This document shows, piece by piece, positions 17,265-62,496 of a stretch of 64,000 nt of DNA. The DNA is from a phage. Position numbers and translations under genes: made by a program. The stretch lies in sequence record PX068456.1, one strand, 5' to 3'. The notes under the pieces were generated by a model, which worked only from the letters and a program-made list of their open reading frames with translations, was not told the origin of the DNA and did not search any database. Numbering within the stretch: position 1 is the stretch's first letter; every line of letters starts with the position of its first letter.

Positions 17265-17628
17265 CTAGAATAGCAACACAATGTGTGTGTATTAAGAAAG
17301 ATGTTCTTGTCCAATCTTTCAAAGAATAAATGGAAAACCATTGTCCATCTATTAGTATTTGGTCAGATAATTGGTCTGATCCTTGCTGAATGCCTCTGAT
17401 TTCTGTTTTTGTCCAGAAGCTATATTGTGCCTTAGATCTGTATCCTTCTGGCAGTGCTTGAAGTGTTCTACCTGATATTGGTTGCAAACTTGCAGCCTCT
17501 ATTGTAAAGTCTTCATATGCTACTGTATTACCCATATTGGAAATTGGCGAATCAGGATCTTGAACATAGGTTCTTTTACGACCCTGATACGTTGTAAGAT
17601 CAAGGAGAGTAAATTGGTCTAATAGCAT
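17212..17628 (-). CDS. virion structural protein
   Basis: 138-aa ORF in head-tail joining region. Confidence 0.4.
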   Translation of the reverse strand: MLLDQFTLLDLTTYQGRKRTYVQDPDSPISNMGNTVAYEDFTIEAASLQPISGRTLQALPEGYRSKAQYSFWTKTEIRGIQQGSDQLSDQILIDGQWFSIYSLKDWTRTSFLIHTHCVAILDDQNNTYSYSEEGGNFG

Positions 17629-17672
17629 TGTATCTCCTTTTTAGTATACATCAAAAACAGACTTATTGCAAG

Positions 17673-18161
17673 TTATTTTTTAGAACGACCCTTCTTGATT
17701 TCTGATTCAATACTGTTAATTAAGTGTCCAGTATCAATAAGAATATGAGAAGAGTAGTTACCTTTATCTCTACGGATTTTAATAGTCACAGGAGATAGTG
17801 GTCTATAACGTTGCAGAGCAATCGCTTTAGCAATAGATTCTCGTGAAACTTTTGCAATAGGTTCAAAGGCAGCTAAACCCCTTCCACGAAGTAAATAATT
17901 TCTAAACACTTCATCAAAATGTTTAGGTATTTCTTTGCTGGCGTGGACTGCACCATCCGTTAAAAACGGACGTGCAGGAGTATTGTTTGTTTCATTACCA
18001 AACTGTTGTATGGCAGCAATTGCAGGGATAGTGAGATCTGATTCTGGATGGCGAACAGCAGTAAGAAAACCAGCATCTATTTCTATATTATCCAGAGCCA
18101 GCATTTTACTAAAATATTCATCTAACGACATATCATCGCCACGTTTGATCTCACATTTCAT
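17673..18161 (-). CDS. head-tail connector/completion protein (candidate)
   Basis: 162-aa ORF, ATGA overlap with upstream gene. Confidence 0.4.
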   Translation of the reverse strand: MKCEIKRGDDMSLDEYFSKMLALDNIEIDAGFLTAVRHPESDLTIPAIAAIQQFGNETNNTPARPFLTDGAVHASKEIPKHFDEVFRNYLLRGRGLAAFEPIAKVSRESIAKAIALQRYRPLSPVTIKIRRDKGNYSSHILIDTGHLINSIESEIKKGRSKK

Positions 18162-18709
18162 TATTTATCCCTTCTGTAGTAACCAATGGGGCCATAGTTT
18201 CTGGCATACTTGATATTTCTCGTATGTCGATCTACACTGCCAACACCACCTAAACCATTTACTGAATTAGGATCACTGTTGACACGATCAATTTCACGAG
18301 CATCAACACCACCAACTAATACTTTACTCGTTACACCTCTACCAGAAGTACAACCAGGTATCATCATATCACCATCAAGATATCCTTTATAGATATTTTC
18401 CCAAGGTGAGATGTATTCTGTCTGTCCAGTACCAAAGGTTACTTCAACCTGTACTTCGCCAACTTTCTCTTTTCTAGAAAGAGCACCACCTGTCTGTGTA
18501 TTATGATTTAGTACGTCTGTATTCCACAAGTATTCAAGTACAGAGATCAGACTGTTCCACAGTACGGCACATTTATTGGCATCATCATTCCCTAGCACAT
18601 CTATCCACGTTTGAATGATCTGTTCAATCATTGCATCAGGAAGTGTTTCTTGTGAAGGATTAAACACCAATATACGGATCATAGGTACAAGGTCACTAGC
18701 TACAAGCAT
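18161..18709 (-). CDS. head completion protein (candidate)
   Basis: 182-aa ORF downstream of capsid gene. Confidence 0.4.
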   Translation of the reverse strand: MLVASDLVPMIRILVFNPSQETLPDAMIEQIIQTWIDVLGNDDANKCAVLWNSLISVLEYLWNTDVLNHNTQTGGALSRKEKVGEVQVEVTFGTGQTEYISPWENIYKGYLDGDMMIPGCTSGRGVTSKVLVGGVDAREIDRVNSDPNSVNGLGGVGSVDRHTRNIKYARNYGPIGYYRRDK

Positions 18710-29705: not shown

Positions 29706-29839
29706 ATAAATTATCTTTAAAATAGCCAGTGTTTGCGGCACTTGACTATGAAGTATTAGGGTATCGGTAAGATGGTGGAGGCCATCTGCCGAAAGTTTAC
29801 TCTATTAAAGTAAGATTACAAGCTACATTAAAGATAACT

Positions 29840-29925
29840 TGGCGGTAGATGTAGGACTTGAACCTACACGCCGTTTCCGACGACAGTTTAGCAAACTGTT
29901 GTGGCTACCATTTCACCAATCTACC
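29840..29925 (-). tRNA. tRNA-Ser (anticodon GCT), type II
   Basis: Perfect acceptor GGTAGAT/ATCTACC, anticodon arm ACAGT-TTGCTAA-ACTGT, long variable arm. Confidence 0.7.
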
Positions 29926-29933
29926 GTTCTTAA

Positions 29934-30086
29934 TTATTCAAAACAACCGGAATCTTTTTGTTCTGCTTTTACCATACGAATATTTTTACCATCTTCAGAT
30001 TGTTGAAGATTAGAATACTCATAAACAACTTTATTATCTACAATCTTAACTCCGGTAACAACCTGTCCAATAGTTTTATAATTCAT
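29934..30086 (-). CDS. small hypothetical protein
   Basis: ORF-track start at 30134 would overlap tRNA-Ser(TGA); internal ATG at 30084-30086 has AGGAG upstream, so start trimmed. Confidence 0.3.
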   Translation of the reverse strand: MNYKTIGQVVTGVKIVDNKVVYEYSNLQQSEDGKNIRMVKAEQKDSGCFE

Positions 30087-30104
30087 AAAGCTCCTAGTTG
30101 AATT

Positions 30105-30194
30105 TGGAGGAAGATAATGGAGTCGAACCATCACCGTATCGCTACAATGGGCCAGGGTTCAAACCTGGTTGCGCACCGCTGCGCCCTACCTTCC
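30105..30194 (-). tRNA. tRNA-Ser (anticodon TGA), type II
   Basis: Acceptor GGAAGGT/ATCTTCC, anticodon arm CCAGG-TTTGAAC-CCTGG, long variable arm, T-arm GATGG-TTCGACT-CCATT. Confidence 0.6.
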
Positions 30195-30257
30195 CGTTAT
30201 CATACTTTAAATCTAACATAAAACTATCTTGCTTGTCAAGTAGTTTTTAAAACTTTT

Positions 30258-30339
30258 TGGTCGGGGTGACAGGATTCGAACCTGCATACTCCAATTACTC
30301 GGTTAACGCCTGATTAGAAGTCAGGTGAGATACACCCCG
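30258..30339 (-). tRNA. atypical tRNA-like gene (TCT anticodon-like hairpin, no canonical D-arm)
   Basis: Perfect 7-bp acceptor CGGGGTG/CACCCCG with CCA and good T-arm, but only hairpin CCTGA-CTTCTAA-TCAGG lies 9 nt from acceptor; fold unresolved by hand. Confidence 0.35.
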
Positions 30340-61329: not shown

Positions 61330-61573
61330 GAGGAGCATTTTTATGACCGAGAAATTTATTGTTACTATGGAACTCACCTTTGATGAAGAAGATTTTGATC
61401 TTCATGTATCAACTAAAGCAGATAACATTCACACAACACAGAGTGTTGCAATCGCTATGTTCTTTAAGCAAGCAATTGCAAAACAAGCTGAAGTGTGTGC
61501 TGGTTTAGCTGTAGAGTACGCAGAAGTTGTCAAGGTTCTTGAAAGTGCTCGCAACAACGATTGGGATGAATAA
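61322..61573 (+). CDS. hypothetical protein
   Basis: 83-aa ORF. Confidence 0.45.
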   Translation: MFKRSIFMTEKFIVTMELTFDEEDFDLHVSTKADNIHTTQSVAIAMFFKQAIAKQAEVCAGLAVEYAEVVKVLESARNNDWDE

Positions 61574-61776
61574 TGGCATACAATTACTATCTGGTATATT
61601 TTAACGAAACTAAGAAAAAAGACACAGGAACTAATGTTTATGCGGAATCCGAAGAACACGCAAAAGCTATTGGTTCAGTGCTTCTTTCTAGAATAGCAGG
61701 TGAAGAAATTCCTGTAGAGGCTATCTTTGCAGAAGTTGACCCTGGTATTCAAGAAGATGATATTACCACTACTTAA
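61573..61776 (+). CDS. hypothetical protein
   Basis: 67-aa ORF. Confidence 0.4.
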   Translation: MAYNYYLVYFNETKKKDTGTNVYAESEEHAKAIGSVLLSRIAGEEIPVEAIFAEVDPGIQEDDITTT

Positions 61777-61779
61777 CTG

Positions 61780-61808
61780 TTGACTTTAACATTGAGGTAG
61801 TGCATACT
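61780..61808 (+). promoter_or_regulatory. sigma70-like promoter candidate
   Basis: TTGACTTTAACATTGAG shares extended motif with promoter at 48666; -10-like CATACT. Confidence 0.35.
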
Positions 61809-61833
61809 TCCTGCAACAGAACAGGAGGGTATT

Positions 61834-62496
61834 ATGAAGTTTGTACTGTATCATCGACTTTCTAAGAAGAAACAACAAGGCAACCAGTATGGTATAGAAT
61901 CACAGGAAGCAGATATCCAACGCTTCCTGGATTCACAAGAAAATTATACTATTGTAGGTAGCTTTGCAGAGTTTTATTCTGGTAAAGGCGATTGGAAGCA
62001 ACGTAGAGAGCTTGTAAAAGCTGTTAATCTTTGCAAAGAAACAGGTGCTACACTTGTTGTTGCTAAGGTTGACCGTCTTGGACGTAACACAGCTTCTGTT
62101 GCAACCTTGTTAGAGATGATTAATGTACGGATAGCAACTATGCCCTCCGCTGAAAATATGATAATAAATATTTTAGCAGTTCTGGCAGAAGAAGAGGCTC
62201 GTGCAATATCTGATCGTGTTAAGAAGAGCCTTAAGGTAGCAAAAGCGAAGGGAACGCTTCTTGGTGCAGCAAACCCTAAATACAAAAGAACAGATTATAC
62301 GAAAACGGAAGAAGCAAAACGCTCAAAAGAGTTTGCACTTTCTTTAAAAGATTCTTTAGTTGCATACAGAGCTTGTAAAACGCCATATATGACGATTGCA
62401 AAGCATCTGAATGAATCAGGAAAGAGAACTATTCGTGGGAGTTTGTTCGATGCCAAAGCGGTACAACGTCTTTGTGCAAAATTGAATATTAAATAA
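61834..62496 (+). CDS. serine recombinase (resolvase/invertase catalytic domain)
   Basis: YHRLS (Ser nucleophile position), VVAKVDRLGRN, ILAVLAEEEARAISDR parallel resolvase motifs. Confidence 0.6.
   Translation: MKFVLYHRLSKKKQQGNQYGIESQEADIQRFLDSQENYTIVGSFAEFYSGKGDWKQRRELVKAVNLCKETGATLVVAKVDRLGRNTASVATLLEMINVRIATMPSAENMIINILAVLAEEEARAISDRVKKSLKVAKAKGTLLGAANPKYKRTDYTKTEEAKRSKEFALSLKDSLVAYRACKTPYMTIAKHLNESGKRTIRGSLFDAKAVQRLCAKLNIK

Follow-up and report, generated by a model that had tools for sequence, protein, structure and literature searches.

The DNA analysed here (the window) is a stretch of 64,000 nucleotides (nt) from a phage, sequence record PX068456.1, and our subject is a predicted small serine recombinase gene close to its 3' end (Table 1). 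The window is 98-99.7% identical to the phi92-like coliphages (Justusliebigvirus, Stephanstirmvirinae), which are virulent myoviruses of ~148 kb, and it corresponds to the reverse strand of the phi92 record from the tailspike genes (~82.8 kb) down to the Ser/Thr phosphatase gene (~18.0 kb). The recombinase, of 220 amino acids (aa), is 100% identical to phi92 gp053 (YP_009012384.1), and we use this name throughout. The phi92 record labels it 'putative recombinase, resolvase family protein / DNA invertase'. The gene as such is already known: public records have carried an annotation of it ever since publication of the phi92 genome, and at least one paper has taken note of it.

An earlier reading of the same DNA, made without database searches (the sequence-only reading), had described a small serine recombinase with resolvase/invertase blocks in an otherwise lytic genome context. 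Both statements agree with what we find. The three blocks that it quoted are all present (YHRLS at residues 6-10, VVAKVDRLGRN at residues 75-85 and ILAVLAEEEARAISDR at residues 113-128), and the genome is that of a phi92-like virulent myovirus. The product matches the Resolvase family of Pfam (PF00239) over residues 4-141 with E = 8.4e-22 and 78.3 bits (cut-off 23.3); judged by this score, the similarity to a resolvase catalytic domain is far above chance. Among the PHROG families it matches PHROG 125, 'DNA invertase' (1.3e-31), and PHROG 95, 'integrase' (1.5e-25). The solved structures closest to it by sequence are Sin, Tn3 resolvase, gamma-delta resolvase and Gin, with E values of 1e-5 to 1e-3 for a single-sequence query and of 7e-17 to 1e-14 for a family-profile query (Sin 7e-17, Tn3 2e-16, Gin 5e-15). 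The nearest solved relatives of gp053 by sequence are the resolvases Sin and Tn3. We thus read the open reading frame as a small serine recombinase gene, a member of a very common superfamily.

The catalytic residues are well conserved. We aligned 41 homologues with 31-88% identity and lengths of 200-290 aa, all of which match PF00239. The alignment shows no variation at E46, D80, R81, R84, E121 and R128, and at least 90% of the sequences keep each of Y6, R8 and S10. In our reading of the alignment, Y6, R8, S10, E46, D80, R81 and R84 of gp053 correspond to Y6, R8, S10, D36, D67, R68 and R71 of Tn3 resolvase; Sin likewise carries a Glu at the position of Tn3 D36. Mutagenesis of Tn3 resolvase has shown that Y6, R8, S10, D36, R68 and R71 are crucial (PMC2794168). 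The AlphaFold2 model built from the alignment is confident (predicted local distance difference test, pLDDT, of 89), and helix E of gp053 aligns with helix E of the gamma-delta and Tn3 resolvases. The ratio of nonsynonymous to synonymous substitution rates (dN/dS) between lineages is 0.09-0.18, with synonymous sites close to saturation. Together, the conserved catalytic residues, a dN/dS of ~0.1 and the confident model argue that the gene is functional and under purifying selection, and that it is not a decaying remnant. By the same residues gp053 is predicted to be a catalytically competent small serine site-specific recombinase.

Table 1. Features at the recombinase locus, in positions of the window
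Feature	Position	Strand	Basis
Predicted serine recombinase coding sequence (gp053), 220 aa, ATG start	61834..62496	+	Open reading frame list; Pfam Resolvase; same as phi92 gp053, YP_009012384.1
Catalytic domain, residues 4-141; Y6, R8, S10 (nucleophile), E46, D80, R81, R84	61843..62256	+	Pfam extent; alignment
Long helix E, residues 108-138, at the dimer/tetramer interface in serine recombinases	62155..62247	+	AlphaFold2 model, pLDDT >90
Predicted four-helix DNA-binding domain, residues 159-216, truncated 'Recombinase'-type helix-turn-helix	62308..62481	+	AlphaFold2 model; motif; PF07508 in relatives
Sigma-70-type promoter-like element TTGACT-N17-CATACT	61780..61808	+	26 nt upstream of ATG; conserved position
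Ribosome-binding site AGGAGG	61823..61828	+	5 nt before ATG; annotated as such in the phi92 record
67-aa open reading frame, phi92 gp054, phrog_15892	61573..61776	+	Directly upstream of the recombinase gene
Imperfect palindrome, 15-nt arms (12/15 complementary), 6-nt spacer	61767..61802		Overlaps the -35 box

Architecture of the C-terminal part

The sequence-only reading saw no obvious C-terminal helix-turn-helix in this protein, and here our results differ. The model has four C-terminal helices (residues 159-170, 172-180, 185-194 and 207-216; pLDDT ~90), this part of the protein carries a motif that is conserved in the 41-homologue alignment (IAxxLNxxGxxTxxG...V.R), and 28 of the 41 family members match the Pfam family PF07508, 'Recombinase' (best E = 3e-7). 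A few of the 41 match HTH_38 or HTH_62. For the window protein itself we were not able to find a second Pfam family at E <= 1, PF00239 being the only one. PF07508 is the domain that comes next after the catalytic domain in the large serine integrases. In a fold search with the whole model, the large serine integrase Bxb1 was the best match (4.6e-7 over 257 columns). With the C-terminal domain alone Bxb1 was again on top, at 2.9-3.5 A over ~60 columns, a match that is not significant (E = 1.3).

The sequence-only reading also saw no large-serine-recombinase extension. With 220 aa, the model ends after the four helices, and gp053 lacks both the zinc ribbon and the coiled coil. The matches of gp053 to curated NCBIfam models are resemblances and not memberships, given that it reaches none of the cut-offs of CcrB, Mpi and YneB. 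The CcrB model aligns up to residue 212 of gp053, which is position 225 of the 542 of the model, with 35.8 bits (cut-off 900). The Mpi master invertase of Bacteroides (203 aa) and YneB of Bacillus (211 aa) are similar in length and align with gp053 over nearly the full length; gp053 scores far under the family cut-offs (33.5 bits against 272 for Mpi and 29.8 bits against 175 for YneB).

The model and the family matches suggest that gp053 is a resolvase-sized protein that has a truncated integrase-type helix-turn-helix as its DNA-binding domain. This correction of the domain architecture is a new contribution of the present analysis. With the Sin, Tn3 and gamma-delta resolvases it has in common the catalytic domain, the residue set, helix E and a size of ~200 aa; unlike them it has another type of C-terminal domain, no adjoining res site with accessory subsites, and neither a transposase nor a plasmid backbone, its replicon being a virulent phage. 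The invertases Gin, Cin, Hin and Pin (of Mu, P1, e14 and Salmonella) share with it the catalytic domain, the small size and the encoding by phages. They differ in the C-terminal type and in having an invertible segment with flanking 26-bp inverted sites; no such segment, sites or orientation polymorphism is seen for gp053 in ~56 genomes, it belongs to a virulent phage, and it matches these invertases no better than it matches the resolvases. The C-terminal helices of gp053 resemble the first part of the 'Recombinase' domain of the large serine recombinases (the integrases Bxb1, phiC31 and TP901-1, and CcrA/CcrB), whereas the rest of that domain, the zinc ribbon, the coiled coil, attP/attB and lysogeny all have no counterpart here.

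The upstream region and the distribution among phages

A promoter-like TTGACT ahead of the gene had been pointed out from the sequence, and we find it at 61780-61785, followed after a 17-nt spacer by CATACT at 61803-61808. The element matches 9 of 12 consensus positions, and such elements are no commoner than in shuffled sequences (30 found, 25.5 expected), so that it is unremarkable when taken alone. Its position, however, is kept across diverged lineages: a TTGACA-N17-TAnnnT lies 25-60 nt before the recombinase start codon in every one that we examined (in our locus labels L005, L007, L085, which is phAPEC8, L083, L084, L008/L009, L010, L011 and L086). Because of this conserved position, we think that the gene is probably transcribed by the host RNA polymerase from an early promoter of its own.

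The gap upstream of the recombinase gene is 57 bp long and contains the promoter and the ribosome-binding site. We considered whether the palindrome listed in Table 1 might serve for binding or crossover; the relatives L005 (87%) and L007 (79%) do not conserve it, and it is probably due to chance. Between two closely similar genomes, L008 and L009, the 5' untranslated region of the recombinase gene shows a small difference. A hairpin-forming element of 32 nt at L008:9952-9985 is the exact reverse complement of the one at L009:9950-9983 (L009 is Shewanella phage 1/40), with collinear flanks, and the difference amounts to a flip of the loop and of a mismatched stem position. In the more distant L011 and L086, hairpins in the 5' untranslated region pair with the ribosome-binding site.

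In three lineages, with recombinases that share 39-50% identity with gp053, an open reading frame similar to gp054 (64-71 aa) stands directly upstream of the recombinase gene; copies are found at 61573-61776 of the window, at L010:9691-9906 and at L084:5705-5899. The last three residues of each copy are Thr-Thr-Thr, and the copies have the conserved motif VYA...QAK.IGAVLLSR. That gp054 and the recombinase are functionally linked is our conjecture: the small protein could be a partner of the recombinase, or the two genes could merely have retained their synteny. All small neighbouring open reading frames of the recombinase gene belong to PHROGs without an assigned function.

Within the genus, the gene is fixed. 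It occurs at the same locus in 56 of 56 Justusliebigvirus records, the protein is 99-100% identical across 56 phage records, and the G+C content of the gene (0.39) matches that of the surrounding DNA. The exact protein was also found in 829 blocks of public assemblies, with an identical gene order at the ten metagenomic places shown. Beyond the genus, there are homologues in Klebsiella phage KP13-26 (78% identity), in Phapecoctavirus including phAPEC8 gp216 (57%; NC_020079.1 16627-17298), in Pseudomonas phage PsgM04F (55%), in Citrobacter phage Tr1 (50%), in Shewanella phage 1/40 (49% over the catalytic domain), to which contig L008 is closely similar, and in Vibrio phages of 127-135 kb (33-38%). 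The genomes of the phages that carry these homologues span 127-155 kb, with recombinase identities of 33-78%, and we take them to be virulent by analogy with their better-studied members. That diverged homologues, each with a probable promoter of its own, are spread over several groups of large virulent phages is a new observation.

Several public records deserve a comment at this point. The genome announcement of ESCO5 and ESCO13 says that no recombinase is present (PMC5374246); a 57%-identical homologue does occur in ESCO5 (NC_047776.2, 10023-10685), where it is annotated as a hypothetical protein. In some records the phAPEC8-type homologue is mislabelled as 'methionine ABC transporter ATP-binding protein'. 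The records MG065639, MG065645, MG065656, MG065689, MG065650 and OK210077 are named 'Campylobacter phage' or 'Serratia phage KKP_3264'. They are 98-99% identical to phi92-like coliphages, except for one that instead has a 57%-identical, phAPEC8-like recombinase, and we regard their host labels as doubtful. Two assemblies carry the exact gp053 on contigs of more than 200 kb, which exceeds one phage genome; in one of these (L094, ENA ERZ28586390 scaffold_9, 232,351 bp) the gene order is normal in the 8.6 kb around the gene, and the scaffold may be a concatemeric assembly, a chimera or an integrated copy.

In the window, the recombinase gene is part of a long co-directional block. Upstream of it there are genes for an HslV-like peptidase and a Dam-like methyltransferase and small open reading frames, and downstream there are further small open reading frames, the Ser/Thr phosphatase and a DprA-like gene. 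The setting is similar in each lineage examined, in that the recombinase gene is co-directional with an array of small early-type open reading frames, but the neighbours differ. Three lineages (the window with L005 and L007; L010; L084) share a Dam-like methyltransferase, a gp054-like open reading frame, the recombinase and a phosphatase near one another in varying order, and a DprA-like gene is near this shared block in the window lineage and in L010. L084, a metagenomic relative of 135 kb, has a tailspike gene of 665 aa (Tail_spike_N and a pectate-lyase fold; L084:3676-5673) among its early genes, inserted between the Dam-like methyltransferase and the pair formed by the gp054-like open reading frame and the recombinase. 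We were not able to find repeats flanking this inserted gene. Even there, the gp054-like open reading frame stays directly upstream of the recombinase.

Recombination sites, genome orientation and lysogeny

The sequence-only reading had suggested that the enzyme could drive a DNA inversion switch, as Gin and Cin do. Our results do not support this: no inverted-repeat pairs rise above background, no orientation difference is seen in ~56 genomes, and the C-terminal domain is not of the Hin/Gin type. In the 64-kb window, the best pairs of inverted repeats are at chance level or are terminator-like hairpins, and the direct-repeat families consist of tRNA genes and chance matches only (the tRNA gene cluster at 28801-30287 of the window emerged from the repeat scan in this way). 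Around the gene itself, sliding pseudo-gene positions in the same loci served as a control, and in 10 lineages no flanking inverted repeats were above these control positions. Apparent flanking repeats in phAPEC8 (38 nt, 74%) and in Vibrio phage 277E43-1 (30 nt, 77%) turned out to be no better than background.

For the orientation of the genome, we ran megablast with stretches of 18-25 kb that together cover the whole genome (window 1-25000, 20001-45000 and 39001-64000; phi92 80-105, 105-130, 130-148.6 and 1-18.5 kb) against the phage collection. We were not able to find any orientation differences in ~56 Justusliebigvirus genomes. The whole ~148-kb genome is collinear, the tail-fibre/tailspike module included, at the level of consensus assemblies, where a minority orientation within one lysate would escape. 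A part of the records that matched at several places was examined, and each of them could be explained by a record end inside the query, by the terminal repeat, or by a mosaic region at 130-148.6 kb with repeated promoter cassettes. The hits in this region were considered as inversions and rejected: in a local blastn comparison of phi92 with phage BME3, all segments lie on one strand and in order. The variation of the mosaic region is a gain and loss of cassettes between repeated promoter/stem-loop units, and the tail-fibre/tailspike module varies by cassette replacement, not by inversion. This genome-wide negative result for inversion in ~56 genomes is new.

The mosaic region has features of its own. 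At L087:8000-16500 (phi92 138.0-146.5 kb, outside the window) there is an array of small open reading frames, many of which are preceded by a repeat of ~70 nt, in which a strong TTGACA-N17-TAnnAT promoter is combined with a stem-loop, GGCGGG-AAATGG-TTTCCCGCC. Nowhere else is the genus strongly mosaic, and the array is reminiscent of the promoter/stem-loop cassettes in T4-type phages. Non-coding clusters of sequences close to the Escherichia coli Fur box (GATAATCATTATC and variants) are found at L087:6990-7100 and 17400-18570, that is, at ~137.0 kb and at the right end of phi92, and two copies are inside the annotated 343-bp terminal repeat.

Nor do we find support for lysogeny. In 5,426 complete E. 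coli genomes there is no match to the 3-kb region around the gene, and a search of 185,579 bacterial and archaeal species, with one genome for each, gave no close relative of gp053. The sequence-only reading had seen no att-like repeats, integrase or repressor, and we likewise find none among the repeats of the window or in the annotation of the displayed parts of the phi92 record. In these parts no site-specific recombinase other than gp053 is named, and in the phi92 record no transposase is annotated within 12 kb on either side of the gene. The negative result for lysogeny is again a new contribution. The sequence-only reading had also stated what would speak against its view of the enzyme, namely that the genome holds no recombination sites or sequence heterogeneity and that the catalytic Ser and Arg residues are not conserved. 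The former is what we see, since we found no sites and no heterogeneity; the latter is not, since the catalytic Ser and Arg residues are conserved.

Possible functions of gp053

What, then, does the enzyme do? Our leading guess, to which we would give a probability of about one in three, is that gp053 is a resolvase-type enzyme that acts on one predicted site per phage genome. Each phage genome would have one cognate site, to which a gp053 dimer would bind. Where replicative multimers, concatemers or the genome ends provide two copies of this site in direct repeat, a tetramer would bring them into synapsis; the four strands would then be cut by Ser10, half of the tetramer would turn by 180 degrees, and the ends would be religated. 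This would yield a genome unit that is monomeric or circular. Such a one-site mechanism fits because we see no repeated site families in the window and no inversions in ~56 genomes. A functional analogy is the Cre-loxP system of P1, which has one site per genome, cyclises terminally redundant DNA and resolves multimers; unlike gp053, Cre is a tyrosine recombinase and P1 is temperate, and no site equivalent to loxP is known for gp053.

Support for a resolvase-type role comes from the nearest solved relatives, which are resolvases, and from plasmid members of the wider family. Full-length relatives with 32-40% identity are common in other viral contigs, on plasmids (106 records at >=80% coverage) and in bacterial chromosomes. 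On the mini-plasmids pMaD11 (5.8 kb) and pP18_i (7.3 kb), a homologue with 34-36% identity is the sole recombinase beside rep and parA, and a sole recombinase on a rep/par replicon is the classic setting of a multimer-resolution system. Among 52 bacterial loci, we see inverted repeats at background only in 38. At three others there are perfect inverted repeats of 28-33 bp, 200-275 bp apart, just upstream of a recombinase gene whose product is ~36% identical to gp053 (L131:5258-5598, L114:3840-4106 and L119:5334-5595). The arms of these three repeats contain short internal tandem repeats, and the segments are candidates for invertible promoter switches, which they resemble.

Several of our results weigh against the resolvase-type reading. 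The bacterial loci show that the wider family holds both kinds of enzymes, three of its members adjoining short invertible-looking segments, so that membership leaves the function unsettled, and the plasmid homologues are only ~35% identical to gp053. We found no candidate recombination site in the phage genome. Beside the gene there is no res site with crossover and accessory sites, the sole local palindrome not being conserved, and the upstream gap is too short for a three-part res of the Tn3 type. A search for a motif common to the upstream region of the gene and the phi92 termini or direct terminal repeat gave none (best 9.5 against a null mean of 10.9). Furthermore, phi92 is annotated with direct terminal repeats of 343 bp. 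Phages with direct terminal repeats are generally thought to package from concatemers, and the resolution of concatemers would therefore not be obviously useful, and possibly harmful late in infection. Finally, the differences in neighbours between phage genera fit an accessory gene as well as a core one. The resolution of concatemers was among the roles named by the sequence-only reading, and of this idea the one-site, resolvase-type action stands as our leading guess, although no site was found to go with it. A resolvase that keeps concatemers single has also been offered as a speculation in the literature (PMC10282059).

Potentially, the gene could have a broader meaning. It is conceivable, if rather unlikely, that the recombinase is a conserved early function of virulent myoviruses of 127-155 kb and takes part in a step of lytic genome processing that is outside current models. 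Candidates for such a step would be the site-specific cyclisation of the incoming genome with its direct terminal repeats, or the conversion between multimeric and monomeric replication forms, and the gp054-like protein might act together with the recombinase in it.

The main rival to the resolvase-type reading is that gp053 acts on DNA other than that of the phage (a site in the host chromosome, a resident prophage or plasmid, or another phage infecting the same cell) and would serve early takeover, anti-defence or competition. We hold this to be doubtful, though it fits some observations: a probable host-type promoter within an array of small early genes in every lineage, the lack of any cognate site or repeat that we could detect in the DNA of the phage, and a position among neighbours that varies between genera, as it does for accessory early genes. 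On the other hand, neither the gene nor its neighbours match known defence-related families, save for a weak methyltransferase hit of the Dam-like neighbour. With hosts as different as Escherichia, Klebsiella, Vibrio, Shewanella and Pseudomonas, the site would also have to be very widely conserved or to co-evolve, and we know of no precedent for a virulent phage that uses a serine recombinase against foreign DNA. A selfish or left-over gene of a mobile element, which persists by hitch-hiking or by its own mobility without any benefit to the phage, would likewise fit the differing neighbourhoods, and plasmids, bacterial chromosomes and other viral contigs commonly carry members of the wider family. 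We consider it improbable, since the gene is under the strong constraint described above with synonymous sites saturated, keeps its catalytic residues, has the same locus in every Justusliebigvirus genome and an unremarkable composition, is not surrounded by terminal repeats or a transposase, and has no close relative that we could find outside phages. The idea of a remnant of a mobile cassette, also raised by the sequence-only reading, is contradicted by the purifying selection, the intact catalytic residues, the fixation in 56 of 56 genomes and the diverged homologues in other phages.

Even less probable is a DNA-binding regulator with the fold of a recombinase, which would control early transcription, including its own, without recombination. 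Resolvases are known autoregulators and the imperfect palindrome overlaps the -35 box of the gene's promoter, but this palindrome is not conserved in close relatives, and the conserved nucleophile and set of arginines would be unexpected in a pure binding protein. An invertase that flips a segment of the phage genome, either near the gene like Gin and Cin or at a distance like Mpi, we regard as very unlikely. The public records and PHROG 125 use this name, the profile matches Gin with E = 5e-15 and, weakly and below threshold, the Mpi model, and 3 of the 52 bacterial relatives have perfect inverted repeats upstream. Against this, ~56 independent isolates are collinear genome-wide, with the examined multi-place hits explained otherwise, and the tail fibres vary by replacement of cassettes; the inverted repeats of the window are at chance level or terminator-like, and the flanking ones are at control level in 10 lineages. 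There is also no C-terminal Pfam match of the Hin type, the family being of the PF07508 type in 28 of 41 relatives. An integrase that enables a hidden lysogenic or carrier state is close to refuted. The match to PHROG 95 and the relation of the C-terminal domain to the large serine integrases would speak for it. Its DNA, however, is absent from the E. coli genomes searched and close relatives are absent from the species-representative genomes, the zinc-ribbon and coiled-coil domains are missing (220 aa as compared to >400), and no repressor is annotated in the displayed parts of phi92.

In summary, gp053 poses a modest and testable question and is not a new kind of system. As there is no invertible DNA in ~56 genomes, the 'DNA invertase' label in the public records is in need of correction. 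This has a practical side: phage therapy and biocontrol are candidate uses of phi92-like and phAPEC8-like phages, and in automated safety screens any recombinase or integrase is flagged because it is taken to indicate that the phage is temperate. Since there are no prophage copies and no integrase architecture, and since the gene is fixed in a lytic genome, our results argue that in these phages the recombinase flag is a false alarm for lysogeny.

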